From contig CAZWPK010000003.1 in NCBI GenBank assembly GCA_964635905.1, positions 2,459-66,458 on the forward strand: a stretch of 64,000 nt of DNA, given 5' to 3'. Both the position numbers and the translations under genes were made by a program. Positions 1 through 30,218 of this stretch are shown here, piece by piece (position 1 is the first letter of the stretch; each line of letters begins with the position of its first letter). Below the pieces are notes generated by a model, which searched no databases, was not told the origin of the DNA, and was given only the letters and a program-made list of their open reading frames with translations. This DNA comes from an uncultured Pseudomonadales bacterium (GTDB lineage: Bacteria; Patescibacteriota; Microgenomatia; UBA1400; UBA12028).

Positions 1-1433
1 GAAACCAAGTTTGTTCCAGTGGTCCGCTGCTCAGAAGTAAGCTTGTAGGTCTCCTTATTTCCTCCATTTTCGATCCGCACGCCATAGGTCGCCTTTCCAT
101 TGTCTGCCATAAATGTAAATGGCTGCCCACTGGTCAAGAATTTATGGAGATTTAACTTGTAACTAAAAACTCCTTGTACAAGCTGCACTGTTTCTATTCC
201 TACTGCGCTTATGGATTGGGAGACGTTAGTGGGCTGAATGCTCAGTTCTAAAGCATTATTCACTGGCGCATTTGCAGAGCTAATCCGTACCCCACTTCGC
301 ACGCTTCCACTCCCCAAAACTCGGAATTTTGTCGAGAGATTGGTGTCATTAAAACCATCTACAAAGGCCACAGCAGAACATGTGCTAGAAAGTTGCGGAG
401 TGGGCTTTGGAGTTGTTGTAGGCGTCAATGGGCTGGTTGACACGGGTGTTGCTGTTACCGTTTTACACTCACAGGTCCCCTGTCCATTCTCCGTTAATCC
501 TCCACAACAAGCTGGTCGAGTTGGTTTTCCACCAACATAGAGTCTATTCACACCATCTCTGGTACAAATATTTTCCGGCTTACTTGCATCCCAACTACAT
601 TTGGCAACATAGGTACTAGTGACACAGCACGTATTATTGATGTTTGAACATGAGCCGTTTCCAGGCATCAATCCTGCCATTCCACAAGCATAGGAAGCGC
701 TTGAAGCTGGATCTTTGTATACACAAACACCTGAAGGACAGTTATTGGCGAGTGCAACAGGAGTTGCACTCGTTACTGGACATGCGGACACATTTGTTTC
801 ACAGCTTAATTTTCCATTACTGCATTTTAACTGTTGACCTGCGGTACAACCTCCTACAGCACAACCTAAAACAGCATTACTTTCGCGACAAAATACTCCG
901 GTTCCAGTATCACCCCAATAACATTGATCAACTCGACAGGAGGCTGATTGGGAAACACACCGAACAACACCATCATTAATATTGTCAGGGTAATATCCTT
1001 GTGAACATGCGCTAATTACTAAATTCTGCGATGAACACCTGTATGAATTGGGTGTTCCATTTTCAACCGAAATTACACCTGTTGGACAGGCTGGAACAGT
1101 ATTGGGATCCAGACATAGTCCTGGAGTCCCAAGTGTTGGATTTGCCGGTACATACACATATCCATTCGAACACACATAATAACCTCGAATTGGAGCTCCT
1201 GTTGCATCAGCAATTGTACATTCAACCGAGTTTAGGATTGCGGGGGTCCCAAAAATTCTGGCCCCTGCGGGACATGCACTTAGCACTGGAGTTTGTGCTC
1301 GCTGAATCAAGCTTTGATCTTGAGCAGCAGCAACGATTGATAATCCCACACCGACAAGAACAAAAAAGAACACAATCATTTTTGACCACAGCTGCTTTGG
1401 AGAATTTGAAAAACGAGAAGACTTTTTTCGCAT
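1..1433 (-). CDS. Cysteine-rich secreted/surface protein, partial (its 3' end lies beyond window position 1)
   Basis: I translated the minus strand by hand from the ATG at 1433 and it stays open with no stop down to position 1 (at least 477 aa). It starts MRKKSSRFSNSPKQLWSKMIVFFFVLVGVGLSIVAAAQ, a signal or anchor-like hydrophobic segment. About 34 Cys follow over ~300 aa (for example CPAGARIFG, YYVCSNGYVYV, CCGGLTENGQGTCEC). Then comes a Pro/Thr linker (TPVSTSPLTPTTTPKPTP) and a C-terminal domain that is not Cys-rich. The ORF track omits it because it has no stop inside the window. The overlapping plus-strand ORFs (238..1435) are low-complexity antisense artefacts. Confidence 0.55.
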   Translation of the reverse strand, partial: MRKKSSRFSNSPKQLWSKMIVFFFVLVGVGLSIVAAAQDQSLIQRAQTPVLSACPAGARIFGTPAILNSVECTIADATGAPIRGYYVCSNGYVYVPANPTLGTPGLCLDPNTVPACPTGVISVENGTPNSYRCSSQNLVISACSQGYYPDNINDGVVRCVSQSASCRVDQCYWGDTGTGVFCRESNAVLGCAVGGCTAGQQLKCSNGKLSCETNVSACPVTSATPVALANNCPSGVCVYKDPASSASYACGMAGLMPGNGSCSNINNTCCVTSTYVAKCSWDASKPENICTRDGVNRLYVGGKPTRPACCGGLTENGQGTCECKTVTATPVSTSPLTPTTTPKPTPQLSSTCSAVAFVDGFNDTNLSTKFRVLGSGSVRSGVRISSANAPVNNALELSIQPTNVSQSISAVGIETVQLVQGVFSYKLNLHKFLTSGQPFTFMADNGKATYGVRIENGGNKETYKLTSEQRTTGTNLV

Positions 1434-1516
1434 AGAAGTAACGAAATAGCGATACTACTTTTACAATGAGGGAATCAAATATCAAAATCAAGCAGGAGTC
1501 TGAATCATCAAGAGAA

Positions 1517-3850
1517 TTAGAGCTTGGCGCGAACTGCAGTTTCTTGCTCCACCAGATCTCTTGGCTTCCCATATTTCACTCGAGAAAGCTCTCGAATCAG
1601 TTCTGCCCGTTTCGGATCCATCATTTTACGCTCGGCGTCTACATCACGGGTGAGATTCATACTAAATGGTGGCACAGGTTCATTACTGACAATCGTTTTG
1701 ATATAGACGTGAAATTTCTCAATATTGGTCAAATCTGTCTCACTAAAGGTGGGAGCAAACTCATGCTGCAAAAAGTTTGCATCAGGCACACCTACGCGAA
1801 AGGTCACCATAGAACCTACGTTTCCAAATACTGCGTTTTTTACATTTTCTTCAATCTGTGCCACAAACTGATTAGCCACGATTAAATTCAGGCGATACTT
1901 TCGAGCCTCTGACAGAATAACTGCAAAGTCATCAGTGGCGTAATTCTGAAACTCATCAACGTAGAGGTAAAAGTCTCGTCGCTGTTCCATTGGCATATCT
2001 TGTCTGCTCATAGCTGCCGTTAAGATTTTAGGCACAAGAATCAAACCTAAAAACTTTGCATCCTCTTCTCCTAACTTCCCTTTAGAAAGATTGACCAACA
2101 AGATCTTCCCATTATCCATGACGTCGCGGAAATTAAAGGCGCTTTGGCTCTGTCCGATGATGTTTCGCATCACTTTATTGGTAATGAACTTTCCAAACTT
2201 ACTTACGATATAGTCCAAGACTTCTGATTTGTGAAAATCTGAGGTTTGCGCGATTTGATCGGTCCAATAGCGACGAACTACGGGATCTTTTACTTTAGGT
2301 AACAGCTCTTGCACATATTTTTGATCCGTTAAACAACGAACGAGTTCAATGAAGGTGGCCCCTGGCTCGGCCATAATCGTCAACATGGCATTACGGATAG
2401 CGTGTTCGAAACGAGGACCAATAATACCTGTCTTATGGGGGTCATAGAGCTTGTACATGAGCGCGATAATGGAACCTACCACAAAGTGCATTTGCTCTTC
2501 CGTCTCAGCTTCCATGATGTTCATTCCCATGGGTCGCTCTGTATCCGAAGGATTAAAGTAAATCACTTCTTCTGCACGTTCTGGAGGCATTAACTGCAAG
2601 ATGTCCTCCACAAGTTCACCATGCGGGTCCAATACAGCTAGACCTTTTCCTGCTCGAATATCTTGCATGATCATGTCTTTGAGAAATTCAGATTTCCCCG
2701 TACCGGTTTTTCCTACAATGTACATGTGACGTTGACGATCTTTTTCGGCGATGTAGATCTCTTTTTTCTGTCCTCGATACATACTGCTTCCCAAACGCAA
2801 ACCGCTAGTTGGAATGCTTGAAGGAGCTGGGGCGGACTTTGCCTTTAACCAGTTAATATGATGTGTCTCTACTGTCTTGTTGGGAAAGTGCAGCACCGTT
2901 GCTAGTTCCTCTGAGTTCAAAACAAAAGTGCCACGATTAAACAACGGCATGTAGCGATAAATGAAATCGATCATGAATAATTGTTTAAAGAGGATCGATC
3001 CCTTTTTAAATGAATTTGTCGGACTACTAAACTGTGCAAAGGCTCCAATAATGTTGTTTAGATGAGAATTAGCTCTTCGTGCATCGGTTGAATTAACAAC
3101 GATGCGAAGCGAGATCAAAAACCCTGGTTTTCCCGCTTTGGTATCAATGGCATCTAGCTTTTTGGGATCATGCGTATAACTTGCTTTTTCTGGATCTGAT
3201 TCTTTCTTTTTAGTGTTGGCAACGTAGCGTTCGCCCGCTGCCTGCCAGCTACTGCTGGCAGGCTGCAAACAGAATTGCATCACGGCCCCTTCACCATCAT
3301 CCATTTTCGATAATGCAGATGTAATTAAGGACAACCCGTCCGTTGGTAGATCCTTATAGACCTTGATCGGATAAAAGGTGGGACTTGCCAACGTTAACGA
3401 CGCAAAAGCAACTTTTCCTCCCGAAGAAAAAATATTGTATTCGTCGACTTCTTCAATTTCCGCAGATGGATACGCACCATAAATTTGTTTCTCGATTAGA
3501 TCTTTTAAATCCGCAGGGGTTGTGACATAAAAAGCAATATTTTCTTTTAGCGCTACAACTTCAAAAGTGAAATGCTCTTCTGATCGGAGTAAAGAGGTAA
3601 AACCTTCATTTTTTAAGCTATAGAGTGCCGCAAACATTTGCTCTGCAGCATCAATTTTGATTTCGTTGTCTTTAGGCAATAAAACTTTGAGCACTTTAAA
3701 TCCAAGCGAGTATTTCTCTCTGGTTCTAAAGCGAAGCCACTGTAACACCATGTATACCAAAATCGCCCCGAAAATTAAGGGGACTAACACCATCACCAAC
3801 AGTGTAGTGACAGAGGTTGCAGCTAGCGCGAGTTCGACTTCGGGTTGCAT
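1517..3850 (-). CDS. Type IV secretion coupling protein-like ATPase (VirD4/TraD/TraG family, FtsK-HerA superfamily)
   Basis: The 777-aa protein has N-terminal TM segments (TLLVMVLVPLIFGAILVYMVL). Walker A is YIVGKTGTGKSEF and Walker B is FYLYVDEFQNY. The T4CP-like region is EARKYRLNLIVANQFVAQIE. The ATG start was checked. Confidence 0.7.
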   Translation of the reverse strand: MQPEVELALAATSVTTLLVMVLVPLIFGAILVYMVLQWLRFRTREKYSLGFKVLKVLLPKDNEIKIDAAEQMFAALYSLKNEGFTSLLRSEEHFTFEVVALKENIAFYVTTPADLKDLIEKQIYGAYPSAEIEEVDEYNIFSSGGKVAFASLTLASPTFYPIKVYKDLPTDGLSLITSALSKMDDGEGAVMQFCLQPASSSWQAAGERYVANTKKKESDPEKASYTHDPKKLDAIDTKAGKPGFLISLRIVVNSTDARRANSHLNNIIGAFAQFSSPTNSFKKGSILFKQLFMIDFIYRYMPLFNRGTFVLNSEELATVLHFPNKTVETHHINWLKAKSAPAPSSIPTSGLRLGSSMYRGQKKEIYIAEKDRQRHMYIVGKTGTGKSEFLKDMIMQDIRAGKGLAVLDPHGELVEDILQLMPPERAEEVIYFNPSDTERPMGMNIMEAETEEQMHFVVGSIIALMYKLYDPHKTGIIGPRFEHAIRNAMLTIMAEPGATFIELVRCLTDQKYVQELLPKVKDPVVRRYWTDQIAQTSDFHKSEVLDYIVSKFGKFITNKVMRNIIGQSQSAFNFRDVMDNGKILLVNLSKGKLGEEDAKFLGLILVPKILTAAMSRQDMPMEQRRDFYLYVDEFQNYATDDFAVILSEARKYRLNLIVANQFVAQIEENVKNAVFGNVGSMVTFRVGVPDANFLQHEFAPTFSETDLTNIEKFHVYIKTIVSNEPVPPFSMNLTRDVDAERKMMDPKRAELIRELSRVKYGKPRDLVEQETAVRAKL

Positions 3851-3864
3851 ATCAAAAAGAACTG

Positions 3865-4434
3865 TTAATCCTTGCTATATTCTACTTGTCCACCCAACTT
3901 TTTCATCAGATATTTACACCATTCCGATAACCAGCGGACACTATCGTTTACGTTCTTTGACAGTCCCTTTTTCGCATCGGTTTCTCCTAAGGGAAGCACA
4001 TACACCGGTTGGGCGGCAGCAGGAGCAATTGTTGATGCAAGCGCATTGGGATCTGCGATTACAACTTCATCAAGTTTCCCTGGCTGCTCACCACGATTGA
4101 CTTTTTCCATCCAGCTCGCAACTTCTACGGGAATTGGTTCTGTTTCAAAGGAATCACTCCCTGCCATTTCTACAAAGCCAGCAACTTCAGAGGAAATGGG
4201 ACCAAGTTCTTTTCCGCGTGGTGACGAAATTGGAGTAGGTGTAGGAGTAACTGTCGCTGCAGCATCTAAGACTTGTTGGGCTAATGCCGGCGATGGGGCT
4301 ACTTGACTTGTTAAACCATCTGCCACTGGGACTGATGCGATGGTTTGTGCTGGCACCATCGGAGCTGGAACTGGTGAGACGCTCGTAGCGCTAGGTTGCA
4401 CTGGTACTTGGGCAGAAGGATCCATACGGTTCAT
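3865..4434 (-). CDS. Hypothetical protein, Pro/Ala/Val-rich N-terminal half
   Basis: This 189-aa ORF has its ATG at 4434. It lies immediately upstream of the T4CP-like gene, 14 nt away on the same strand. The N-terminus is low-complexity (PVQPSATSVSPVPAPMVPAQ) and the C-terminus is a more ordinary domain. Confidence 0.4.
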   Translation of the reverse strand: MNRMDPSAQVPVQPSATSVSPVPAPMVPAQTIASVPVADGLTSQVAPSPALAQQVLDAAATVTPTPTPISSPRGKELGPISSEVAGFVEMAGSDSFETEPIPVEVASWMEKVNRGEQPGKLDEVVIADPNALASTIAPAAAQPVYVLPLGETDAKKGLSKNVNDSVRWLSEWCKYLMKKLGGQVEYSKD

Positions 4435-9692: not shown

Positions 9693-11339
9693 TTAGTCTT
9701 GCATAAAAACCGGCAACACTAATGGCGTTCTGCCAATAATGTCCGTCATACGTCGGGAAACTTGCTTTTCAATGCTTCGTTTAATCGTTTGTTCATCTCC
9801 ACCGAGTTGAATTGCTGACTGGGTTTCTTCCTTAATTGCAGTCACCACTTCGTCTGCCTGACGCATAAAAACAAACCCTCGTGATACAACTTGCGTTTGC
9901 TCTGGGTGATATCCCTGACTATCCTTTGGAATAATCACCACAACCATTCCTTCTTCCGCCATCTGTTTTCTGTCAGCCAACACAACGGTTCCCACATCTC
10001 CAACCCCTAATCCATCCACCATTAATGATTTCAAATTCAAGGTTTCACCCTTTTTTGCTTGACCCGACTCAAACTCAATCACTTGTCCGTCGGTGGGAAG
10101 CAATATCTGATGGTTTTTATATCCCATTTTTAAGGACATCCGTTCGTATTCAATCCGATGACGATCGCTCCCTCCAATTGGCATCAGATACTTCGGTTTT
10201 GTTAACGCCATCAGCAGTTTCTGTTCCGTTGCACTTGCGTGTCCACTTGTGTGCAGTCCTGTGTCAACATCTGAATACGCCACATCAATACGATTTCGAG
10301 AAAGCTCATCGATTGCTTCGTAAACATTATTTTCATTTCCCGGAATTGGCTCAGTGGCAAAAACTACTTTATCATTGGGTTTAATCGCCAGCATTGGATG
10401 TTCACCAGAAATCGCTCGAACTAATGAGCTTCCAGGCTGACCTTGACTGCCTGCTACACATACGACGAGATCTTTATCCGCATACTGATCCATTTTCTTT
10501 TTATGGACGATCATGCTTTTAGGGATATTGAGAACGCCAAGCTGCAACGCAATCTCTACGTTTTGTTCTACCGATCTTCCCACAAATACTAACTTTCGAT
10601 CGAATTCCTGGGCAACTTCAGCCAACAGCTGAATGCGGTGTAAGTTTGACGACATCAATGTAACGATATATTTACCTTCACACGCTGTAATCTCTCGAAC
10701 AAAAGATTCATACAACATCTCTTCCGATGGAGCCCAACCGGTACGTTCCACGCGTAAACAGTCCGATAGTAAGCACAGAACCCCACGTTCCCCTGCCTGC
10801 GTCATTGCCGCAAAATCTGGAAGTTTCCCATCAACTGGGGTAAGGTCAAACTTGAAATCAGAACCATGGTACACAATACCCTCTGGTGTATCGATCACGA
10901 TGTGGGTGGTGTGCGGAATGGAATGTGTCACATGGACAAATTCTGGTCGAAAACTCCCTAAAGAAATGGGTTTTGTATAGGGGGCAACGAATACCTCTTT
11001 ATTTATTCCTCCATCTTGTAGTCTGGCCATCGCAAAGTTTGCGGTCAGCTCAGATCCATAGATTGGAAAGTCTGGAAGTTGAGAAATGATATAGGGCAAT
11101 GCAGCAATATGATCGTCATGACCATGCGTCAGACACATACCAACGATCGTCGCACCCTCATTCACTCGCTTGAGAACATATGAAACATCAGGAATTAGAA
11201 CGTCTACTCCTAACATAGATGTTTCCGGGAAGCCAATTCCACAGTCTACCAATAAAATGTCATCCTCATACTCATAGGCAAACATGTTTTTGGTAACATT
11301 TCCCATTCCACCTAAGGGAATAATTCGTAATTTACTCAT
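9693..11339 (-). CDS. rnj: Ribonuclease J (metallo-beta-lactamase/beta-CASP)
   Basis: The protein has an HGHDDH motif, starts MSKLRIIPLGGMGNVTKN and has a beta-CASP region. The track start at 11432 adds a 31-aa extension (MCYHTTITT...) that I consider unlikely. I placed the ATG at 11339. Confidence 0.85.
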   Translation of the reverse strand: MSKLRIIPLGGMGNVTKNMFAYEYEDDILLVDCGIGFPETSMLGVDVLIPDVSYVLKRVNEGATIVGMCLTHGHDDHIAALPYIISQLPDFPIYGSELTANFAMARLQDGGINKEVFVAPYTKPISLGSFRPEFVHVTHSIPHTTHIVIDTPEGIVYHGSDFKFDLTPVDGKLPDFAAMTQAGERGVLCLLSDCLRVERTGWAPSEEMLYESFVREITACEGKYIVTLMSSNLHRIQLLAEVAQEFDRKLVFVGRSVEQNVEIALQLGVLNIPKSMIVHKKKMDQYADKDLVVCVAGSQGQPGSSLVRAISGEHPMLAIKPNDKVVFATEPIPGNENNVYEAIDELSRNRIDVAYSDVDTGLHTSGHASATEQKLLMALTKPKYLMPIGGSDRHRIEYERMSLKMGYKNHQILLPTDGQVIEFESGQAKKGETLNLKSLMVDGLGVGDVGTVVLADRKQMAEEGMVVVIIPKDSQGYHPEQTQVVSRGFVFMRQADEVVTAIKEETQSAIQLGGDEQTIKRSIEKQVSRRMTDIIGRTPLVLPVFMQD

Positions 11340-11466
11340 ATAAGGAGCCCCTTTCAAAACACTACGTTCCCAAAATTTTAACCTTGGGTTCTTGAAAAAT
11401 GATACAGTTGTAATGGTTGTATGGTAGCACAATCTTGATGATTATCTCTGGTAGTACTCATTACTG

Positions 11467-12093
11467 TTAAAATAACGCTTCTTTAATTTCCTCTTCCTTT
11501 GACTTGGCTCCAGATTTTATCCACTCAAGAATTTTAGGCAGTTTATCAAAGTCCCGTTCGAAAGCTTGTCGCATCGCAGTTGACCGTAACGCTGCCGCAG
11601 GATGATAGAGCGGGTAGACAAAATTGTTGCTATTATTCCAAGTTACCTTAAATACTCGACCATGAATCTGTGAAATTTTTGTATCTGGGAAGAATTTCCC
11701 CATCGAAAACCGTCCTACAGTAACAATTAGTTTTGGATTAATAATCGATATTTGACTGTCCAAAAAAGGTCGACAAGCCTCAATCTCTTCTGGGGTGGGA
11801 TCGCGATTTTCCGGTGGACGGTGTTTAACCACGTTGGCGATAAAGACATCCGCTTCCAAAAAACCCACACGACGGATATTGGTTCGAAGTAATTGTCCGC
11901 TTCTCCCCACAAACGGGCGTCCAGAAAGATCCTCATCTTTCCCTGGTGCTTCCCCAATAAACAACAACTCTGCATCGGGATTTCCTTCTCCCGGTACACA
12001 CTTGGTTGCAGACTTTGCGAGATCATACTGTAATTCAGAGGCCATTGTGGTGGCTAATTTCTCCAAAGCGAGTTTTTTTTCTGTAGGCGTCAT
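11467..12093 (-). CDS. Uracil-DNA glycosylase, family 4
   Basis: The GEGNPDAELLFIGEAPGKDEDLSGRPFVGRSGQLL motif is typical of family-4 UDG. Confidence 0.85.
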   Translation of the reverse strand: MTPTEKKLALEKLATTMASELQYDLAKSATKCVPGEGNPDAELLFIGEAPGKDEDLSGRPFVGRSGQLLRTNIRRVGFLEADVFIANVVKHRPPENRDPTPEEIEACRPFLDSQISIINPKLIVTVGRFSMGKFFPDTKISQIHGRVFKVTWNNSNNFVYPLYHPAAALRSTAMRQAFERDFDKLPKILEWIKSGAKSKEEEIKEALF

Positions 12094-12142
12094 GAGGATT
12101 AATCTAACAAATATATGGGGAAAAAGAAACTAATCGCGATAG

Positions 12143-12844
12143 CTATTGGGATCCATAGACAAGTAATGCCATTCCCCAAAAAGCGTGACTGACAACAACT
12201 GAGGAGATGCTTCGTGTTCTCAAAAACAATATTGCTTGACCAAAAGCAAAAAATGCTAATAACAGGAGTGGAGAAAATGCGCCAGACAGGCCTGATCTAA
12301 ACAACAGCACGGGAGCATGAAATAGGATAAAGAGTAGTGTTGTAAGAGCGCTTGAAATCCATTCATTCTGAAATCTTTCTTCCAGGGTAGGGAGAATTAA
12401 GCCATAAAAGAACAATGATTCCCACCATGCCGTCATAAAGGCTAAACCAAATTCACTCCAAAAACGCGAGGCGGTAAAAAGATGCGGAATAAAAACACTA
12501 CCTCGACCAACGGCGCTGGAAACTAAGGCAACAAACGCGAATAGGCCACCGATTGCTAGTCCTTGAAAGGCACCGTTCCAGAATTGTCGACTTTCCAATC
12601 CAAAGAAAGCGGTCGGCTTCTTGGAATATCGCATATACGCCCAGAGAGGTCCACCAAAGATAATCCCCTTAAAAAAGATTTCATCAAACCATACCGGCTG
12701 ATGCACAAAAGCGCGGTATAACAATAAAGAGACAAAACTAAAACAAACAACCGAAACAAAAAAGACTTGGAGCTGGGCTGGTGACAGTTTGTCTGGAGTA
12801 GTCGACAAAGAGTTTGAAGTGAGCATAAGCTTTCCTTCAATCAT
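12143..12844 (-). CDS. CPBP-family intramembrane metalloprotease (CAAX protease/Abi)
   Basis: The protein is multi-TM with an EExxxR-like motif (PTLEERF) and His motifs (LFHAPV, SHAFWG). The track start at 12862 is a TTG. I placed the ATG at 12844. Confidence 0.65.
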   Translation of the reverse strand: MIEGKLMLTSNSLSTTPDKLSPAQLQVFFVSVVCFSFVSLLLYRAFVHQPVWFDEIFFKGIIFGGPLWAYMRYSKKPTAFFGLESRQFWNGAFQGLAIGGLFAFVALVSSAVGRGSVFIPHLFTASRFWSEFGLAFMTAWWESLFFYGLILPTLEERFQNEWISSALTTLLFILFHAPVLLFRSGLSGAFSPLLLLAFFAFGQAILFLRTRSISSVVVSHAFWGMALLVYGSQ

Positions 12845-12879
12845 CCTACGACATGAAGACAAAGCTGTCTATGTGAATT

Positions 12880-13506
12880 CTATTGCGTCCCTTTTAGAAG
12901 GGATAACACCTTTTTTAAAGTTTGCTCACGGTTCGTGCTATAGGTATCAATGACGAGATCATAGAGTTCAGGCCGCCAAAAATTAATGAGATCCTCTTTG
13001 GAGCAGATTCCGGGTTCTACTACCCATTGTGTCCATTCTTTTGCATACATCCGACTCCACTTGCTCAAATTTTGATCATAGCGACTTCGCATGTTTTCTT
13101 TTGCTTCCTGAGTGGTGACATCATCGCGATTCACTATTCTGTCAATTCGGATCGCATCATCACTACAAATAACCAAAACCTTTAAAACATTTTGAAGCCC
13201 TTGTGCTAAGAATCCAGAAAGCCACGACTCAATAATCCATTTTTCCTGCGTATCTAGTTTATTACGCATATCCATGTCAACTTGACGATCAAAGTCATCA
13301 CTATAGTGAGAGCTATCATGATGCAACCCTTTTTGCTGCTCAAAGGAGCCATGTTCTAGTGCGTATTGACGCATAAACTCCCCACCCGAAAACCCTCTCC
13401 AGCCATCCATTGAGAGTTCTTCTCGTAATAATCGCAACAACGTTGTTGATCCGCCGCCTGGTAAACCTGAGATTGTAATGTTTTCGTACTTATAGTGATG
13501 ATCCAT
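12880..13506 (-). CDS. Cytidylate-kinase-like family protein with a degenerate P-loop
   Basis: The N-terminus reads ITISGLPGGGSTTLLRLL. This is a Walker-A-like glycine loop in which Ser replaces the conserved Lys (GGGSTT instead of GxGK[ST]T). The protein is 208 aa. Confidence 0.45.
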   Translation of the reverse strand: MDHHYKYENITISGLPGGGSTTLLRLLREELSMDGWRGFSGGEFMRQYALEHGSFEQQKGLHHDSSHYSDDFDRQVDMDMRNKLDTQEKWIIESWLSGFLAQGLQNVLKVLVICSDDAIRIDRIVNRDDVTTQEAKENMRSRYDQNLSKWSRMYAKEWTQWVVEPGICSKEDLINFWRPELYDLVIDTYSTNREQTLKKVLSLLKGTQ

Positions 13507-14062
13507 ATCCCCTCTTTTGTTTGGATGGTTGTGCAGCTATTGTACTGCTTTTTGAAAAAAACTCGCTTTCTCTTAAATTATTTCCACAGCGCACAGCCTC
13601 TGTCATTGCTTCACTCAGCTGAAGAAGTTTTTCTTTGGCCACTGTCAAAGGCATGGGAATTTCATCATCAAAATAAAAGTGAAAGATACGATTTCGACAT
13701 TCAACCCAAGCATCCCAAATTAAGCGTGCAGTTTTGGGTGAACACGCACGTTCTAGATCATCATAAAACCACCATTCATCCTTATGTTGTGGTGAAATAT
13801 CGGGATTTAGGGCACGTCCAATCCGAAATTTATGATCTTGATACCCTTTTTTTGGTAAAATTCCCATCTGATGTAAGTAGGACTTAATAAAGCCTTCATA
13901 CGCTTTTGCCATTGGGAACACAACAAAAGAGTAACTTGCAAACGACGAATGTAAACGGGTTTCTCGATCGTAGAGCTCTTGAGAGATTACCACGAGTCGT
14001 TGACCATGGTCGGGCAAAAACGGAAACCATGATTCTTGCTGAAATGATAAAAGAGTTGACAT
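13490..14062 (-). CDS. Hypothetical alpha-helical protein (possible HEPN-like Rx4-6H motif)
   Basis: This 190-aa ORF has its ATG at 14062 and overlaps the downstream kinase-like gene by 17 nt. It contains an RNRIFH motif. Confidence 0.35.
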   Translation of the reverse strand: MSTLLSFQQESWFPFLPDHGQRLVVISQELYDRETRLHSSFASYSFVVFPMAKAYEGFIKSYLHQMGILPKKGYQDHKFRIGRALNPDISPQHKDEWWFYDDLERACSPKTARLIWDAWVECRNRIFHFYFDDEIPMPLTVAKEKLLQLSEAMTEAVRCGNNLRESEFFSKSSTIAAQPSKQKRGYGSSL

Positions 14063-14152
14063 GCAGTAGATTAAACACGACTCCGTCCGTAGTTGCTAGG
14101 AATAAACTGGTGAAAGGAGGCTTTCACCAGAGATATCTGGTACAATCTTTCT

Positions 14153-16636
14153 ATGAAACGAAGTAGTTCCTCCGCAACAGAACCAGCAAGCAAGAACTCT
14201 AGAAAAGCTGCGCGGTTCGTACTTCTTCCCATCCTATCAATGTTCAAAACTACTCTTAAAAAAATGATACGTTTGATACCAAATCGACGTAAACGTCAGT
14301 CATTCTTCTCCCGTCGTCCTTTTTCTCATGGGCCTCACAACAACACCTCGAGTTTACCCAGTAAGACACAGCGCTCATCCCCAGTAAAATTTGTTTCCTT
14401 ACGGTTAATCCTCTTTATTGTTATAACAATCCTCGCCGCTACTCTGTTGGGTGCGATTGCGTTCTTTTTCAAAGATCTCCCCTCTCCCACCACCCTCCGT
14501 GGGACTGATTACCCTGTTAGTAGTAAAATTTTGGATCGAAATGGAAATTTGCTCTACGAGATCTATGCAGACAAAAACAGAACTCCAATAAAACTGTCTG
14601 ACCTTCCTCCACATGTCTATCAAGCTTCCATAGCGATTGAAGACCAGCGTTTTTATCACCATTTTGGTTTTGATCTCGAAGGTATTGCTCGAGCACTTCG
14701 CAATACTATTTTCAAACAACGACTACAAGGTGGTTCCACAATTACCCAGCAATTAGTAAAGACGACACTCTTAAATAGAGAGCGAACAATTCAGAGAAAA
14801 ATCAAAGAAGCCGTTCTCACAGTCTTAACAGAAATCATGTATAACAAAGACGATATTCTGGAAATGTATTTAAACCATATCCCGTATGGTGGGACAGCGT
14901 ACGGGATAGAATCAGCAGCAAGAACCTTCTTTGACAAGTCAGCCAAGGACCTCACTCTTTCGGAAAGCGCACTACTGGCCGGTCTACCGCAAGCACCTAG
15001 CACCTATTCTCCATTTGGAAACAAGTCGGAACGGGCGAAAACCAGACAGAAAGAAGTTCTTCGCCGAATGATTGAAGAAGGTTACATTACCCAGGATGTG
15101 GCGGATAAAGCTTCTGAGGAAACGCTCCACTATGCCACCAATAAAATTGATATCAAAGCACCACACTTTGTTTTCTATGTAAAAGATTTGCTCGAAGAAA
15201 AATATTCTTCGTATGTCGTAGAGCATGGGGGGTTACGCGTAACAACCACTCTTGATTTATCCATCCAAGAAAAAGCGCAAGCTACGGTCGCCGCAGAATT
15301 GAAAAAACTTTCTCGCTATCGAGTTGGAAATGGCGCCGCACTTGTCACGAATCCTGGAACGGGAGAAATTTTAGCGATGGTCGGGAGTAAAGATTATTTT
15401 GATGCGACGGAGGATGGACAAGTAAATGTGACCATTCGAGAACGACAACCTGGATCATCGATCAAGCCACTAAACTATGTTACCGCAATGGAGCTCGGGA
15501 AAATCACCCCTGGCACAATGTTTCTCGATATTCCCACCTGTTTTCAGGTTGATGGGCAACCTCTGTACTGTCCAAAAAATTACGATGGGACATTTAAAGG
15601 TCCTACGCAGGTACGATTTGCGTTAGGAAATTCCAATAACATCATCGCTGTTAAAACCTTAGCGCTAAACGGAATTGAAAATTTTATTGCAACTGCCTCA
15701 GCAATGGGAATCTCAACTTGGAAAGATCAAAGTCGATACGGGTTATCATTAACATTAGGTGGTGGAGAAGTGACAATGTTGGACTTGGCTACAGCGTATG
15801 GAACGCTAGCGAATCAAGGAGTGCGTGTTAACCTCACCCCAATTCTAAAAGTAGAAGATTATACGGGAAAAGTGTTAGAGGAACACAATCCTCAAACAAC
15901 CCTTGATGAATTAAAAGATTTAACGACAGAGAATGCATCCCCTTCCGGCACGTTTGATTTGAGCAAACCCATCGAACGCGTCCTTCACCGAGCAAATGCG
16001 TATTTAACCTCTCATATCTTGCTAGACAACAACGCTCGAACGGGAGCATTTGGACCAAATTCTCAACTTGTCATTCCGAAACAAATTGTTTCTGTAAAGA
16101 CAGGAACCACGAATGATTTACGGGATAACTGGACCGTAGGGTACACTCCTGAAATTCTTACCGCCGTGTGGGTGGGAAACAACAATAATAGCCCAATGAA
16201 TAGATCACTTGTCTCTGGAGTAACAGGGGCTGCTCCAATTTGGAATGGGATTATGCGCGAAATTTTACGTGGCAAAAACGAGGTCTGGCCCGAAAAACCT
16301 GACGATGTCGTTTCCTCCAATATCTGTGTGACATCTGGGCTACTGCCGTCAACAGAAGGAGCGTGTCCAACGCGATCGGAATTCTTTTGGAAAGCAACAC
16401 TCCCAACCGCAAGCGATATTTTGACGAAAGAAGTTTGGATCAATCCCACAACAGGGCTACCTCCTAAAGAAGGTGAATCTACCGATGGATTACAGATCCA
16501 GCGACGCTTATTCTTATCGGATCCCTTAACAGCGGAATACTGTGTGGATTGTTATCCAGTCAGTACTGAAAGTGGGTCTCCGCAATACGGTCAGACCATC
16601 ATTCCTTTTGGTAAACGACGACAACGTAATGAATAA
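14153..16636 (+). CDS. Class A penicillin-binding protein (PBP1A-type transglycosylase/transpeptidase)
   Basis: GT51 motifs EDQRFYHHFG and GGSTITQQLVK are present. The transpeptidase motifs are SGSSIKP (SxxK) and KTGTTND (KTG). The protein has a TM anchor. Confidence 0.9.
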   Translation: MKRSSSSATEPASKNSRKAARFVLLPILSMFKTTLKKMIRLIPNRRKRQSFFSRRPFSHGPHNNTSSLPSKTQRSSPVKFVSLRLILFIVITILAATLLGAIAFFFKDLPSPTTLRGTDYPVSSKILDRNGNLLYEIYADKNRTPIKLSDLPPHVYQASIAIEDQRFYHHFGFDLEGIARALRNTIFKQRLQGGSTITQQLVKTTLLNRERTIQRKIKEAVLTVLTEIMYNKDDILEMYLNHIPYGGTAYGIESAARTFFDKSAKDLTLSESALLAGLPQAPSTYSPFGNKSERAKTRQKEVLRRMIEEGYITQDVADKASEETLHYATNKIDIKAPHFVFYVKDLLEEKYSSYVVEHGGLRVTTTLDLSIQEKAQATVAAELKKLSRYRVGNGAALVTNPGTGEILAMVGSKDYFDATEDGQVNVTIRERQPGSSIKPLNYVTAMELGKITPGTMFLDIPTCFQVDGQPLYCPKNYDGTFKGPTQVRFALGNSNNIIAVKTLALNGIENFIATASAMGISTWKDQSRYGLSLTLGGGEVTMLDLATAYGTLANQGVRVNLTPILKVEDYTGKVLEEHNPQTTLDELKDLTTENASPSGTFDLSKPIERVLHRANAYLTSHILLDNNARTGAFGPNSQLVIPKQIVSVKTGTTNDLRDNWTVGYTPEILTAVWVGNNNNSPMNRSLVSGVTGAAPIWNGIMREILRGKNEVWPEKPDDVVSSNICVTSGLLPSTEGACPTRSEFFWKATLPTASDILTKEVWINPTTGLPPKEGESTDGLQIQRRLFLSDPLTAEYCVDCYPVSTESGSPQYGQTIIPFGKRRQRNE

Positions 16637-16656
16637 TAGTGATTACTAACTCATTG

Positions 16657-17841
16657 ATGAAACGTTTTGCATTAATCGGTACACTTATTTCACTTGCCTT
16701 TCTACTGGGGATTGCGGTTGTTGTAGTCGTTACTAAAATTCCAACACGCTCAACTTCAGTTCCCCTGTTTTCTCAACCTGAATCTGAGAACACTGCAGTC
16801 GTAAAACCGTCGACAACTCCTTTTGTTGTGTATGGGTATCTGCCGTACTGGAATACAAATAAAGCACGTTTCCCTACTTCGATTACCCATGTTTCCTATT
16901 TTTCACTTACCATTCAGCAAGATGGGTCCTTACTTTCAGTTCCTAAAGAGAAGCAAGATCCCGGCTATCGTAAATTCCAACAGGGATACTTAACCACACT
17001 TAATGAGAACTTATCACCTGGCCAAAAAATTGAACTAACCCTCTCAATGATGGAACAAGAGGAAATCCCTGTTTTCATTCATAATCCCGACGCCCAACAG
17101 CGGCTTATTCAAGACGTACTTTCACTCCAAAAAGACTATCCTCTCTCCGGAATAAATATTGACATTGAATACAATGGGTCCGTCACTCCCACTCTGCAAA
17201 ACGATCTAGTGACACTATTATCCAATTTAAGAAAAGCAACAAAAGCAGTCGATCAAAATTTCTCTTTGTCGATGGCAGTCTATGGTGATTCTGGGAACTC
17301 ACATCGACTTACTGAACTTGCGCTAACAGCTCCCCACGTAGACTACATCGTGGTCATGACGTACGATTACCATCGTCGCTCATCTCCGCGTTCAGGCCCC
17401 GTATCTCCAGTCTATGGAAAAACGGAAGGAAAATGGGAAGGAGATATTATGGAAGATCTCCAGCGGATACGACAAAAAGTTCCCGCAGAAAAAATTCTGC
17501 TAGGCATTCCGTTTTATGGATATGAATGGTCGGTTGAGGACGCTTTTAATCCGCAATCGTTTACATTACCACGTAGTGGAGCTACGGCGAGTTACGAACG
17601 AGTTTTACAGCTTCTAGAGTCACCAGGTACGACAGTTTTTTGGGATAGCATTGCACTCTCTCCCTACTTACAGTATGAAAAGAATGGTATTACTCAACGA
17701 GTATACTATGATAATCCACTCTCCCTGTCCTATAAGCTTGACCTCGTCCGAAAGGCTGGTTTTGGGGGAATTGCGATTTGGGCACTTGGATATGAAGGCA
17801 ATTCCACTGATCTTTGGGACGTAATCACATCCAACCTATAA
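16657..17841 (+). CDS. GH18-family (chitinase-like/YaaH-like) secreted protein
   Basis: The catalytic-region motif LSGINIDIEY matches DxxDxDxE. The protein has a signal anchor (MKRFALIGTLISLAFLLG). The track start at 16639 is a GTG lying 2 nt after the PBP stop. The ATG at 16657 is preferred. Confidence 0.6.
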   Translation: MKRFALIGTLISLAFLLGIAVVVVVTKIPTRSTSVPLFSQPESENTAVVKPSTTPFVVYGYLPYWNTNKARFPTSITHVSYFSLTIQQDGSLLSVPKEKQDPGYRKFQQGYLTTLNENLSPGQKIELTLSMMEQEEIPVFIHNPDAQQRLIQDVLSLQKDYPLSGINIDIEYNGSVTPTLQNDLVTLLSNLRKATKAVDQNFSLSMAVYGDSGNSHRLTELALTAPHVDYIVVMTYDYHRRSSPRSGPVSPVYGKTEGKWEGDIMEDLQRIRQKVPAEKILLGIPFYGYEWSVEDAFNPQSFTLPRSGATASYERVLQLLESPGTTVFWDSIALSPYLQYEKNGITQRVYYDNPLSLSYKLDLVRKAGFGGIAIWALGYEGNSTDLWDVITSNL

Positions 17842-17897
17842 TTTCACTCCAACTCCCTATTTCAACTTCTTAATTGCTTTGCTAGTATTCGCCCAAC

Positions 17898-20351
17898 ATG
17901 GGTGAAAAAACTCTGGTTAATAACCATAAGAATCTATTCAGTTGGGTCGGAAAACCCCTATACTACCTACTATTATTAGTGGGGTTTATAATAGGAACGA
18001 TAATTTTTCTCTGCGTTAAATTCAGTTCGCGAATAATCCCAATCATCGTTTCGTCCAGTCGTTCTTTTTTCCACTTCGATCGGGAAATCTATCAGACTTA
18101 TAAGATTAAAACCCGCGGTGTTCTCCAGAATACTCGAGAGGGTGTTTTTTGGACACTGCAGCAGTTATTTCGGGTGACACGAAGAGTCCCTTCCTATACC
18201 CGTCATCTTTTTTCTCGTCCACTCTTCTCCCACCCCTACCTACTGCTCTTTAATAAAATCTGGTTACCTTTGGCAGTGTTCGGTATTGTGACTCTTTCAA
18301 TTGGTAATGTTTTTTTTGGCATCTATGATGGCGTTGTAAAGAACCTTCCTCAAGCATCGTTGCTACGCACTCATACGCCTCCGCTAACAACAAGAATTTA
18401 TGACCGCAACGGAATCTTGCTCTATAGCATTTTTAAAGATGAGAACAGAAGCTTGATCAAACTCTTTGAACTTCCTTCCTACCTCCCACAAGCATTCGTA
18501 TCCATGGAAGATCAGGAGTTTTTTGAGCATAAGGGAATATCATTTAGAGGACTAGCTCGAGCAGCTCAGGTTTTCTTTTTTGAACCGTGGCATACGGAAG
18601 GTGGCTCCACCATAACCCAGCAACTTGTAAAGAACATTTTTCTTACCAACGAACGAACTTTTTCCCGAAAACTAAAAGAAATGATTATTGCTATTCAAGT
18701 AGAGCGTGAATTTAGTAAAGAAGAAATTCTTGAAATGTATTTAAATGAAGTTTCTTTTGGTGGATCGATTTACGGCGTTGAAGAAGCTGCAAAAACGTAT
18801 TTTGGCAAGCATGCTAAAGAGCTTTCATTAGAAGAGAGTGCGTTTTTAGCAGGACTTCCTCAAGCTCCAAGCGTATACACCCCCTATGGGACGCACCCAG
18901 AATTGGGAATTGCACGGCAACAGGAGGTGTTACGACGTCTATTTGAAGATGGGAAAATCAGCGCGATTCAATTTGAGCAAAGTAAGACCACCCAACTTTC
19001 CTTTGTCCATACTAAAAACGACATCAAAGCCCCACACTTTGTCATGTATGTCCGAGAAAAACTTGCCAAAGAGCTTGGGGAACAGGTTGTGGCTCAAGGT
19101 GGGTTGGAGGTCTATACGACGCTGGATTTAAATCTTCAAACAAAGGTCCAAGATATTGTGACCAAAGAAGTCAATTCTCTAAAAAACTTACGTATCTCCA
19201 ATGGTGCAGCCTTAGTTACCGATCCTCGGACTGGAGAAATTTTGGCCATGGTCGGAAGTAAAGATTATTACGACTCCAAAAATGATGGGCAAGTAAATGT
19301 AACACAGCGACCACGACAACCGGGCAGTGCGATCAAGCCACTCACGTATGCGACCGCTTTTGAACGCGGCTTTACTCCTGCGACCTTAATTGAGGATAGC
19401 CCCCTAACAGTCGCCATTGCAGGCAGTAAGCCATACTCTCCGGTAAACTACGACAACTCGTACCACGGCAATGTCTCCGTGCGTCGGGCTCTGGCTTCCT
19501 CCTATAATATCCCCGCTGTAAAAACGCTTATGAGTATTGGAGTCCCTAATCTCATTGAAAAAGCAAAAAGTATGGGAATTTCTACCTGGACGAACCCTAC
19601 TCGCTATGGACTATCGATCACACTTGGTGCTGCGGAGGTCTATATGACGGATATGAGTGCTGCGTATAGTACGTTTGTGAATGGTGGAGTTACGGTCCCC
19701 CTTCAATATGTAAAAGAGATTAAAGATTCCTCTGGAAAGACCGTTGTCTATAATCCCTGTATCCAAACCAAAGCCCCTTGTGGAGGTAAAAAAACACTCG
19801 ATCCGCGGATTGCATACCAAATTGTCTCAATCTTATCTGATAATGTGGCTAGATCCCCTGCTTTTGGACTCCACTCCGTCCTCAATATCCCGAATCAACA
19901 AGTCATGGTAAAGACAGGCACCACCAATGGTTTGCGTGATAACTGGACTTTTGGCGGAACAACGGAGCGACTCGTGGCAACCTGGGTAGGGAATAATGAT
20001 AACTCTCCAATGAGTAAAGTAACCTCAGGAGTAATTGGTGCGAGTCCAATTTGGTCCAAAATCATGAACCAGCTTCTAGTTGAAAAATCCCCCCATGTGT
20101 TCCCCATCCCTGATGGAATTGTGAAAATGAGTATCTGTGGTTCAAGTGGAAAGATTGCCTGTGGAAACTGTGGTTCATCTTATGATGAATATTTCTTGCC
20201 CGGAACTGAACCGGCGATGGACTGTCGCTATATTGCCCAAGAAGAAAGTCAGAGTCCAGAACTAAAAACCGATGTAAACCACTTTGGGAACGCAACGAGT
20301 AATCCCACTATTGCCCCGCAAGTTAATCCAAGAAATCGTCAATCTCGATAA
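17898..20351 (+). CDS. Class A penicillin-binding protein (second PBP1A-type), with a long N-terminal membrane region
   Basis: GT51 motifs EDQEFFEHKG and GGSTITQQLVK are present. Transpeptidase motifs are PGSAIKP and KTGTTNG. The protein has two N-terminal hydrophobic segments. Confidence 0.9.
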   Translation: MGEKTLVNNHKNLFSWVGKPLYYLLLLVGFIIGTIIFLCVKFSSRIIPIIVSSSRSFFHFDREIYQTYKIKTRGVLQNTREGVFWTLQQLFRVTRRVPSYTRHLFSRPLFSHPYLLLFNKIWLPLAVFGIVTLSIGNVFFGIYDGVVKNLPQASLLRTHTPPLTTRIYDRNGILLYSIFKDENRSLIKLFELPSYLPQAFVSMEDQEFFEHKGISFRGLARAAQVFFFEPWHTEGGSTITQQLVKNIFLTNERTFSRKLKEMIIAIQVEREFSKEEILEMYLNEVSFGGSIYGVEEAAKTYFGKHAKELSLEESAFLAGLPQAPSVYTPYGTHPELGIARQQEVLRRLFEDGKISAIQFEQSKTTQLSFVHTKNDIKAPHFVMYVREKLAKELGEQVVAQGGLEVYTTLDLNLQTKVQDIVTKEVNSLKNLRISNGAALVTDPRTGEILAMVGSKDYYDSKNDGQVNVTQRPRQPGSAIKPLTYATAFERGFTPATLIEDSPLTVAIAGSKPYSPVNYDNSYHGNVSVRRALASSYNIPAVKTLMSIGVPNLIEKAKSMGISTWTNPTRYGLSITLGAAEVYMTDMSAAYSTFVNGGVTVPLQYVKEIKDSSGKTVVYNPCIQTKAPCGGKKTLDPRIAYQIVSILSDNVARSPAFGLHSVLNIPNQQVMVKTGTTNGLRDNWTFGGTTERLVATWVGNNDNSPMSKVTSGVIGASPIWSKIMNQLLVEKSPHVFPIPDGIVKMSICGSSGKIACGNCGSSYDEYFLPGTEPAMDCRYIAQEESQSPELKTDVNHFGNATSNPTIAPQVNPRNRQSR

Positions 20352-25623: not shown

Positions 25624-26727
25624 TTAGCGTTTAAAAGGCATGACCACTGTTAAATAGTTTTCTTGGTTTTCGGGTAGCAGGATGGCTGGTTTTAATTCTG
25701 AGTTCATACAAAACTCAACTCTGTCAGTTTTCATGTGTAACAAGGCATCGGTTAAAAACTTTGCATTAAACGAAATCTTTTTTGATTCTGTCGCGTTATA
25801 GGTTGAATCTAGGGTGACTTCATTCTCCCCCATGGTTGCACTTGTGGCTGCAACGGTTAGGTTTTTCCCTTCAAGGGTCATCGAAATGATTGAAGAGCTT
25901 TCTCTAGCGACAACCATGGTGGTTTTTAGGGCGTTTAACAAGTCTTGTCGATCAAGGAACGTTCGAATGAGGAATGAAGAAGGAATAATTTGATTATAGG
26001 GAGGGAAATCTCCTTCAGTCAGTCGAATTAGAATCTGAGTCTCCCCTGCCGCCATTCGTACCTGCTGAAGCTCTTTAGATACTCCAAATTCGACTGTGGC
26101 TGGCTTTGTTCGAGCAAGAGCTCTCAACACTTCTAAAAGGGTTTTTGCGTTGATTAAAACGTTAAATCCTTCATTTTCCATTTTCATCGGATAGTTTGAA
26201 ACAACGAGTCGATACCCGTCGGTTGAAACTATCGAGCACTGATCTTTTTGAAATTCGAAATAGACGGAAGCTAATACTGGACGTGTTTCGTCCAGACTGG
26301 CGGCATAGCCCGTTTGCTCCACAATGTCAAAAAAGTCTGTGGCAGGAAATTCCACTTTACTCGTGTTCAATTGGGGAAACGGTGGAAAGTCTGTAGCAGG
26401 AAAAGTTGGTATTTTTGCTTTAGCTCTAGCCTGTGTCAGACAGAGGTTGCCTTCAATAATCTCGCATTCTAGTGGTCCATGTGGCAACGATGAAATAAAA
26501 TCCGTAAACACTTTAGCTGGAACAACACATTCTCCCGACTGTTCTATTTTCCCTCCAATGCTCGTATGAAATCCTACTCGAAGATCAGTTGAACGAATAA
26601 TTAATTGTCCTTCAGTTGCTGAAAGGTAAATTCCTGAAAGGATAGGTAATTGGGGTTTAGAAGATATAAAACGCGATGCGTCCTGTATAGCTTTTAAGAC
26701 ATTTTCTTGTAATACGGTGAAGTGCAT
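25624..26727 (-). CDS. dnaN: DNA polymerase III beta sliding clamp
   Basis: The start MHFTVLQENVLKAIQDASRFIS...LSGIYLSA is diagnostic and three-domain length fits. The ATG was checked. Confidence 0.9.
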   Translation of the reverse strand: MHFTVLQENVLKAIQDASRFISSKPQLPILSGIYLSATEGQLIIRSTDLRVGFHTSIGGKIEQSGECVVPAKVFTDFISSLPHGPLECEIIEGNLCLTQARAKAKIPTFPATDFPPFPQLNTSKVEFPATDFFDIVEQTGYAASLDETRPVLASVYFEFQKDQCSIVSTDGYRLVVSNYPMKMENEGFNVLINAKTLLEVLRALARTKPATVEFGVSKELQQVRMAAGETQILIRLTEGDFPPYNQIIPSSFLIRTFLDRQDLLNALKTTMVVARESSSIISMTLEGKNLTVAATSATMGENEVTLDSTYNATESKKISFNAKFLTDALLHMKTDRVEFCMNSELKPAILLPENQENYLTVVMPFKR

Positions 26728-29432: not shown

Positions 29433-30218
29433 ATGGCCTCTATTCAAGAAATTTCTCAAGCAATCCTCATTAATCCTCTTTTTGAATATTTGAAGTTTTT
29501 ATACGGTCAGACCGGCAGTTTTGGCATGGCCATCATCCTTTTAACGGTGTCTATACGGACTGTTTTAGTGCCTTTCACGCTTCCAACCCTGAGGTCCCAA
29601 AAGAAAATGAAGCTGCTAAAGCCTCAAATTGATCAATTGAAAGAAAAATTTAAGAAGGACCCCAAGAAACTACAACAAGCCCAAATGGAATTGTTTAAGG
29701 AACACAACATAAACCCGATTGCAGGTTGTCTCCCCTATATCGTGCAGTTGATTATCATTTTTGCACTCTATAACGTGCTGTCGCACTTTGTTTCCCGAGC
29801 TTCCTCTGAGGGACTTACAATAAACACGTGGTTTTTGGGATGGGATTTAGCTCATCCAGATCGTTTTTATATCATTCCAGTCTTGGCTGCCCTGACCCAA
29901 TTTGTTCTCTCACTCATGCTTCTGCCTGGGATTGAAAAACATGACTTAGTTCCAAACAACAGTAAAAAAGTGAAAGTTCAAACCGAGAATAAGCGAGAGA
30001 CTAATTCTCAACAGATGGCAGAAACAATGCAAAAACAAATGGTTTTTATGATGCCAATCATGACTGGACTTTTTGCACTTCGATTCCCTGCTGGACTCGG
30101 ACTGTATTGGATAGTCACCACAATCTTTAGTATTGCTCAACAATGGGTGATTTCAGGCCCAGGAGGTCTCAAAAATATCGTTTCCCAAGTTAAAAGTAGA
30201 CTGCCACTACAACAATAA
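29433..30218 (+). CDS. yidC: Membrane protein insertase YidC (short form)
   Basis: The protein has multi-TM 60-kDa-IMP-like topology, sits in the rnpA-yidD-yidC-jag context and has a basic C-tail. Confidence 0.85.
   Translation: MASIQEISQAILINPLFEYLKFLYGQTGSFGMAIILLTVSIRTVLVPFTLPTLRSQKKMKLLKPQIDQLKEKFKKDPKKLQQAQMELFKEHNINPIAGCLPYIVQLIIIFALYNVLSHFVSRASSEGLTINTWFLGWDLAHPDRFYIIPVLAALTQFVLSLMLLPGIEKHDLVPNNSKKVKVQTENKRETNSQQMAETMQKQMVFMMPIMTGLFALRFPAGLGLYWIVTTIFSIAQQWVISGPGGLKNIVSQVKSRLPLQQ

Follow-up and report, generated by a model that had tools for sequence, protein, structure and literature searches.

The window analysed here is a stretch of 64,000 nt from contig CAZWPK010000003.1, which is deposited as an uncultured Pseudomonadales bacterium and placed by GTDB in Microgenomatia (Patescibacteriota). 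Its left end carries a predicted membrane-anchored ATPase, which, together with the genes on either side of it, is the subject of this report. Positions 1-4434 hold three co-oriented genes on the minus strand, all of them real: a small Ala/Pro-rich protein (3865..4434, 189 aa), the ATPase (1517..3850, 777 aa), and, after an intergenic spacer of 83 nt (1434..1516), a Cys-rich open reading frame (ORF) at 3..1433, which comprises codons 1-477 of 550, the final 73 lying outside the window. The first two genes are separated by 14 nt. The Cys-rich frame stays open from the ATG at 1433 to window base 3, and the chance probability of 477 open codons is ~7e-13 at the local base composition. A preliminary description had interpreted this region as a second type IV secretion system (T4SS) locus with a coupling ATPase and its possible substrate. 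It had also remarked that the Cys-rich gene is missing from the ORF list, which is correct: the frame is absent because it overruns the window start, and the ORFs listed on the plus strand at 238-1435 are its antisense shadows.

The ATPase had been described as a membrane-anchored protein with motifs typical of coupling proteins, and all of the quoted motifs, as well as an N-terminal hydrophobic segment, were located in the 777-aa ORF. From the N to the C terminus it consists of one long hydrophobic segment (residues 4-41), which forms the presumed transmembrane (TM) anchor, an alpha/beta domain of ~300 aa (Pfam DUF8128), and a nucleotide-binding domain (NBD) with an all-alpha insertion. The Walker A motif of the NBD (GKTGTGKS) is found at residue 380 and the Walker B motif (VDEF, part of VDEFQN) at 631, followed by EARKYRLNLIVANQF at 648. 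The assignment of DUF8128 rests on precomputed annotation, with no DUF8128 match in the Pfam scan run here: the entry 100% identical to the ATPase (P0005) carries PF26449 (DUF8128), PF10412, and PF01935, and the same architecture at ~777 aa is recorded for all 120 listed homologues. PGAP names the family combining DUF8128 with TrwB_AAD_bind [quoted passage not shown]. A literature search for DUF8128 and for candidate phyla radiation (CPR) combined with DUF87 gave no match.

According to profile searches, the ATPase is best described by families of type IV coupling proteins (T4CPs). Pfam TrwB_AAD_bind scores 37.9 bits against a gathering threshold of 20.5 and extends over residues 368-684, and DUF87 scores 34 bits against 23.2. 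FtsK_SpoIIIE, at 19.8 bits, stays under its threshold of 24 and matches nothing beyond the P-loop; classification as a plain FtsK/SpoIIIE translocase, which the preliminary description had named as a result that would overturn its own, is thus not what the searches return, and the ATPase is therefore T4CP-like. The top NCBIfam matches come from TraD families and from the VirD4-like CD1115 family, each far under its curated equivalog cutoff (50.8 of 366 bits for SXT_TraD, 44.2 of 250 for conju_CD1115, and 17 of 521 for TraD_Ftype), and NCBIfam HerA receives 14.5 bits against a cutoff of 970. When a profile of 58 family members was compared with PDB sequences, DotL and TrwB were the sole matches. 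Taken together, the hidden Markov model (HMM) searches that had been recommended for TraD and VirD4 agree with the original label, and assignment of the ATPase to the VirD4/TraD/TrwB coupling-protein lineage is supported at the sequence level. PADLOC reported generic HerA and mad8 P-loop matches only, and a defence-system reading was dropped.

The AlphaFold2 (AF2) model of the ATPase has a predicted local distance difference test (pLDDT) value of 73.9 and contains, in order, a long anchor helix, the ~300-aa alpha/beta domain, a RecA-like domain, and an all-alpha insertion at ~451-579. An all-alpha domain inserted into the NBD in the manner of TrwB is among the features that define a T4CP, and the ATPase has it. 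In structural comparison the model obtains the highest value with TrwB (22.3), followed by the DndH C-domain (21.1), DotL (20.8), the VirB4 C-terminal domain (20.7), and HerA (17.9), while FtsK and TcpA have the lowest (12.7 and 12.6, respectively). As for full-length PDB matches, Foldseek lists TrwK/VirB4 first (E 1e-14, TM-score ~0.3), ahead of T4CPs (1e-9). The two-domain layout of the model thus hints at a VirB4-like arrangement and can serve as a lead only. Alignment of the ATPase family with the window's own VirB4 by hhalign is restricted to the P-loop, so that common descent of DUF8128 and the VirB4 N-domain is unproven.

In comparison with the VirD4/TrwB/TraD proteins of known structure (1e9r for TrwB, 6sz9 and 7ovb for DotL, 8dol for Cag-beta), the ATPase has the ~300-aa DUF8128 domain added between anchor and ATPase domain, and it has one hydrophobic segment, whereas T4CPs usually have two TM helices. 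Unlike a mobile-element gene, its gene lies in the chromosomal core, with a ratio of nonsynonymous to synonymous substitution rates (dN/dS) of ~0.01, and it adjoins neither relaxase nor mating-pair-formation (Mpf) genes. It also differs from them in falling so far below the equivalog cutoffs for TraD and VirD4-like families. It differs from VirB4/TrwK proteins as well: the ATPase has no CagE_TrbE_VirB match in Pfam, its TIGR00929 score is 16.1 bits against 643, and the P-loop-only alignment and TM-scores of ~0.3 have been given above.

Relatives of the complete two-domain layout are also encoded by phages. The ATPase matches phrog_5156 with E 8e-95, and Bacillus phage G gp156 and its relatives from phages CP-51, SP-10, and JL show homology to it that takes in the N-terminal domain and reaches ~85% of the length (for gp156, 85% query coverage and TMq 0.67). 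The likeness ends at ~21-23% identity, and the phage proteins have no assigned function. In phage G (L086, JN638751.1, 90859-93336) gp156 directly follows gp155, which is annotated as VirB-like and is itself matched to the ATPase model by Foldseek (E 9e-14). Full-length homologues with DUF8128 and the T4CP-like domain occur in the large Bacillus phages CP-51, SP-10, JL, and Staley, and several of the phage genes carry the erroneous annotation of an MsbA-like permease.

Regarding distribution, more than 5,648 homologues of the ATPase were found at E < 1e-10; the best 120 have 69-100% identity and are nearly all 774-785 aa long. In GTDB species genomes 212 loci were confirmed, and the best 80 of the 212 span 58-97% identity. 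The 212 loci, at 58% identity or more, cover Woese-, Pace-, Levy-, Roizman-, and Chisholmbacteria, and further homologues carry the name Microgenomates. Within the shared syntenic block the ATPase is the most conserved protein, with 97-98% identity to the two related loci L002 and L003, followed by RNase J (96-97%), the DUF1003 protein (85-87%), the GH39 glycosidase (84%), the upstream 189-aa protein (79-80%), the GT4 glycosyltransferase (79%), and Maf (78-79%). In the farther relatives L007 and L008 the ATPase is still 86-89% identical, while Maf is down to 52-55%. The dN/dS of the ATPase is 0.006-0.011 against three relatives, with synonymous sites saturated (dS ~2). Judged by these sequence comparisons, the ATPase is a core gene of Microgenomatia (Patescibacteria/CPR), inherited vertically and located outside any mobile element or T4SS cluster. 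According to the GTDB genome records, contigs that carry it are often titled "uncultured Pseudomonadales", "uncultured Gammaproteobacteria", "Vitreimonas sp.", "Desulfotomaculum sp.", or "Thermoanaerobaculum aquaticum"; such titles are likely to reflect taxonomic mislabels or bin contamination in public records.

The gene preceding the ATPase had been characterized as Pro/Ala-rich, and its 189-aa product indeed contains 12.2% Ala and 11.6% Pro, together with 11.6% Val and 10.1% Ser. The protein is acidic (pI 4.6) and has no TM segment. Its N-terminal ~110 aa are of low complexity and rich in Ala, Pro, Ser, and Val, and its C-terminal ~60 aa are conserved (PV.VLP....KKGL...V.DS.RWL.EW..K..KK). 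Using an HMM iterated from the window protein, a member of this family was detected directly upstream of the ATPase on the same strand in 58 of the 80 loci with sufficient upstream sequence, mostly with a gap of within ~30 nt and sometimes overlapping it. The dN/dS value is 0.08, no match was obtained in Pfam, NCBIfam, PHROG, or PADLOC, and the homologues are all named "hypothetical protein". On this recurrent adjacency, the protein is a conserved partner of the ATPase. CagZ, which binds Cag-beta, and IcmS/W, which bind DotL, are small acidic proteins that associate with coupling ATPases, and since they offer an analogy, an adaptor or regulator role may be inferred for the 189-aa protein. What the pairs have in common is a small acidic protein that is encoded beside a coupling ATPase and is its presumed binder; the likeness is by analogy only.

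As for the Cys-rich gene, the preliminary description had listed an N-terminal anchor, a Pro/Thr linker, and a separate C-terminal domain, all of which are present; the cysteines within the window, however, number 29 and not about 34. The 3' end, which had been left for recovery, was obtained from an identical database entry (P0001, locus L001), whose 2.8-kb contig reaches ~370 nt past the window and adds 73 codons and a stop, followed by tRNA-Ile. The full-length protein has 30 cysteines and is 550 aa long when counted from MRKKSS and 532 aa when the second Met is taken as the start; the upstream start is favoured because every orthologue retains the basic N-tail. Seven modules can be distinguished: this N-tail (MRKKSSRFSNSPKQLWSK), a hydrophobic segment at ~14-40, a juxtamembrane QDQSLIQRA motif, a variable Cys-rich region, a conserved Cys module (C.W..C..DGVNR.Y..PTRPACCGGLTENGQGTCEC), a Pro/Thr linker, and an all-beta C-terminal domain of ~200 aa between two cysteines. 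That the ORF is a real gene follows from its dN/dS of 0.19-0.25 against three orthologues and from cysteine columns that are all invariant in the four-sequence alignment.

The basic n-region MRKKSSRFSNSPKQLWSK, the single hydrophobic segment 14-40, and the AAA-Q after it correspond, by rule-based inspection, to a Sec-type N-terminal signal or anchor, and the cysteines and the Pro/Thr linker are features of an extracytoplasmic protein. In the paralogue P0125 the TM segment with QDQSLIQRA follows an N-terminal region of ~190 aa, and the element is therefore probably a membrane anchor and not a cleaved signal. The C terminus (...DRFTSSCL) is without an LPXTG-like motif, TM segment, and basic tail. 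Structure prediction, which had been suggested as a check, was of no help here: the AF2 model built from four sequences has a pLDDT of 40 and is too poor for use.

The protein is rare. Its orthologues number four only among 5.8 billion proteins. When 1.84 billion representatives were searched exhaustively with an HMM, four hits were returned, and the additions were the paralogue family P0125 and two proteins alike in the ~55-aa Cys module alone, so that this module recurs in P0125-P0127 only; for the N-terminal Cys region and the C-terminal domain the same search found no relatives. Pfam, NCBIfam, PHROGs, and PADLOC gave no family match, the sole PDB match is a chance one (E 0.27), and the window contains no paralogue of this protein or of the island proteins described below. 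Segment identities among the orthologues form a mosaic. Between P0001 and P0002 the N-terminal Cys region is 92% and the C-terminal domain 47% identical, and between P0002 and P0004 the corresponding values are 48% and 92%, while the central Cys module keeps 78-83% in every pair. This pattern points to module exchange between lineages. Overall, the gene evolves ~20 times faster than that of the ATPase. Assemblies from several samples break within ~60-210 nt of its end, which strain heterogeneity would fit as a candidate reading. In L006 (Woesebacteria, JAGOVC010000010.1) two further Cys-rich surface proteins are encoded past tRNA-Ile (11110-14137, minus strand). One (426 aa, 31 Cys) has three knottin-like repeats of the CxxxDCPSxxxCxxGxCR type and a sortase-type end (LPKAG+TM), and the end of L002 contains a fragment of it too. 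The other, a paralogue of 580 aa with 33 Cys, on the opposite strand, has the same TM+QDQSLIQRA anchor and DGVNR...CCGGL module. From these sequence characteristics, the Cys-rich protein is most likely a strain-variable, disulfide-stabilised surface protein of the host-contact or adhesin kind; it represents an orphan family that is new and very narrow, though its kind is familiar. With so poor a structural model, the adhesin reading rests on architecture and evolutionary pattern.

Whether the Cys-rich gene co-occurs with the ATPase in related genomes was examined in 85 loci (L001-L085), and the adjacency is confined to a narrow group: the Cys-rich gene comes after that of the ATPase in L001-L006 alone, loci with an ATPase identity of at least 97%. 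Wherever these loci extend far enough (L001, L002, and L006), tRNA-Ile(UAU) comes directly after the Cys-rich gene. In the next relatives, with an ATPase identity of 85-89%, the position directly after the ATPase is taken either by tRNA-Ile(UAU), as in L007 (89%), L010, L016, L017, and many others, or by another gene, as in others of L008-L012 and beyond. In 30 of 78 loci tRNA-Ile(UAU) lies no more than 300 nt downstream of the ATPase, on either strand, and in more it lies within 2.5 kb. On the sequences compared, adjacency and tRNA position would be read most simply as an insertion of the Cys-rich gene between the ATPase gene and tRNA-Ile(UAU) in one genus-level clade. The spacer at 1434-1516 and those of L002, L003, and L006, aligned by eye, share a block, CATTCCCTCATTGTAAAAGTAGTAYCGCTATTTCGTT, which is nearly unchanged in the four orthologous loci while synonymous sites of the flanking genes are saturated (dS ~1-2). 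The block is possibly a promoter or 5' leader of the Cys-rich gene. A consensus scan of 1434-1516 for a terminator or sigma-70 promoter gave nothing above shuffled expectation.

Around the ATPase gene lie Maf, the GH39 glycosidase, the DUF1003 protein, the GT4 glycosyltransferase, RNase J, uracil-DNA glycosylase (UDG), and penicillin-binding proteins (PBPs), with no relaxase, VirB4, VirB6, or VirB8 near it. No relaxase was found among the 33 window proteins scanned against Pfam, a scan that covers the window incompletely, and a search of the window for a second T4CP-like ORF returned none. The locus is thus free of genetic association of the ATPase with relaxase or mating-pair-formation genes. 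The term "second T4SS locus" is not borne out by these observations: other T4SS components are absent nearby, the neighbours are housekeeping genes, and the ATPase is a vertically inherited core gene.

The predicted actual T4SS cluster of this genome, and presumably the "first" locus implied by the word "second", lies ~55 kb away, beyond dnaN (25624-26727, minus) and dnaA (27040-28473, minus), the latter two together occupying 25.6-28.5 kb. It includes, on the minus strand, a VirB4-like ATPase (58744-60684; P-loop_TraG at 99 bits together with CagE_TrbE_VirB), a 387-aa protein without a family match (60693-61856), and a 374-aa PrgI/VirB3-family protein (61853-62977; PrgI at 34 bits, gathering threshold 27) with a CarboxypepD_reg-like C terminus. 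A 190-aa protein, also on the minus strand and without a family match, belongs to the same cluster region (58744-63634). YidC is encoded at 29433-30218, and the cumulative GC skew turns at ~33 kb, with its minimum near 32-34 kb; because dnaN and dnaA are present and the skew turns there, the window probably spans the replication origin region. Elsewhere in the window, a 400-aa GH18 glycosidase lies between class A penicillin-binding proteins of 827 and 817 aa (Transgly+Transpeptidase; 14153-20351 for all three), an 884-aa protein carries DUF4012 (31395-34049), and a 574-aa protein (54455-56179) matches the Pfam family of the microtubule-associated tyrosine carboxypeptidase MATCAP with 59.6 bits.

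This separation resembles what has been published for the phylum. The passages of Quinonero-Coronel et al. (2025, PMC12102498) drawn on here count 5,713 VirD4-type T4CP homologues, distributed over 2,918 of 3,035 Patescibacteria genomes and with only 148 close to virB4, and place the T4SS cluster near dnaA. The layout of the window is the same as that of these orphan homologues, i.e., a near-universal VirD4-type gene apart from a dnaA-proximal virB4 cluster. Hence the ATPase family and its orphan placement are already known. Those passages count genes, and the DUF8128 architecture, the small partner, the linkage to tRNA-Ile(UAU), and the extreme conservation are added here; what the partner, the phage relatives, and the extreme constraint add to earlier work is modest.

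Overall, the region is probably best explained, in our estimate with fair but far from full confidence, as a conserved module of two genes and, after it, an unrelated surface-protein gene that is specific to the lineage. The small acidic, largely disordered cytoplasmic protein and the single-pass membrane-anchored ATPase of the VirD4/TrwB lineage would be a conserved core pair of Microgenomatia. The ATPase would form a membrane-bound ring and, driven by ATP, recruit or feed a substrate (protein or DNA) to the chromosomal, relaxase-less T4SS of Patescibacteria (VirB4/PrgI, 58.7-63 kb), and the small upstream protein may bind it as an adaptor or regulator, like CagZ for Cag-beta. The product of the Cys-rich gene would be a Sec-exported, disulfide-rich modular surface protein, N-terminally anchored or signal-cleaved, whose modules are shuffled between lineages; it would be a host-contact or adhesin-type protein of an epibiotic cell, and not cargo or part of the ATPase machinery.

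Several points weigh against this explanation. According to the passages of PMC12102498 used here, the T4CP homologue of Southlakia epibionticum is non-essential while its T4SS genes are essential. The DUF8128 domain and the single hydrophobic segment are non-canonical for a T4CP. As for the surface protein, its gene is co-oriented with that of the ATPase, 83 nt downstream and without a predicted terminator, so co-transcription is possible, and with a model pLDDT of 40 the term "adhesin" comes from architecture and evolutionary pattern only.

Among the alternatives, the one that survives best holds that the ATPase, with its small partner, was exapted to a housekeeping function independent of the T4SS, such as translocation of DNA or nucleoprotein in uptake or division, or another membrane translocation, and that the resemblance to T4CPs reflects ancestry only. 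Extreme conservation of the ATPase is typical of an essential core function, its gene is never beside virB4 in the loci examined, DUF8128 is absent from classical T4CPs, and full-length homologues occur in large Bacillus phages, which are without a classical conjugation apparatus; exaptation is also left possible by the authors of PMC12102498 in the part of their text used here. The same part states, however, that t4cp genes are often distant from virB4 in bona fide systems as well. In phage G, moreover, gp156 comes directly after the VirB-like gp155, which Foldseek also matches, and this pairing hints that the family pairs with a VirB4-type ATPase. The alternative function has no direct support, and we regard this explanation as unlikely, though one to be kept in mind. 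A more far-reaching proposal, which is more tentative still, would make the DUF8128-T4CP-like ATPase and its acidic partner a Patescibacteria-wide, near-essential membrane translocation module, exapted from conjugation machinery, sharing ancestry with the module of large Bacillus phages, evolving as slowly as RNase J, and acting on a non-conjugative substrate (e.g., in uptake or delivery of host macromolecules where epibiont and host meet); separately, the neighbouring site flanked by tRNA-Ile(UAU) would be a hot spot at which strains swap mosaic, disulfide-rich host-contact proteins.

Much further behind is the explanation with which the analysis began, in which a functional tie to the ATPase makes the Cys-rich protein a substrate, adhesin, or pilus tip of a second T4SS. 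It is consistent with the common strand, the 83-nt gap without a predicted terminator, and the synteny preserved in the four closest genomes. The adjacency, however, is gone at an ATPase identity of 89% or below, where tRNA-Ile(UAU) comes next in L007 and L010 and other genes in L008-L012 and beyond, and the conserved intergenic block suggests that the Cys-rich gene has a control region of its own. Other T4SS genes are absent nearby, and the paralogue in L006 is encoded on the opposite strand, among the other surface proteins of an island. The Sec-type N-terminal signal or anchor, finally, argues against recruitment by a cytoplasmic coupling protein. Of the earlier proposal, the exported, disulfide-rich character of the protein holds and an adhesin-like surface role is plausible, while the roles of substrate and pilus tip are unsupported, as is a functional link to the ATPase, the adjacency being confined to the clade with at least 97% identity. 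The substrate or pilus-tip interpretation is largely refuted by the phyletic pattern, and the functional tie as a whole is considered very improbable. That the ATPase is a plain FtsK/SpoIIIE or HerA-type DNA translocase wrongly labelled as a T4CP is hardly credible, given the sub-threshold, P-loop-only FtsK_SpoIIIE match (19.8 bits against 24), the absence of a four-TM N terminus, and the HerA score of 14.5 bits against 970.

Patescibacteria depend on host cells, and in the only species among them that is amenable to genetics the T4SS is essential. With the Cys-rich protein, for which annotation as a T4SS substrate is inappropriate, there is a further example of the strain-variable modular surface proteins expected in host contact. 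The locus itself bears on the role of the near-universal orphan T4CP homologues in Patescibacteria: the Microgenomatia homologue is among the most constrained proteins of its neighbourhood and has an extra domain and a fixed small partner. The partner, the domain, and the constraint provide handles for structure prediction of the complex, for co-occurrence analysis, and for genetics.

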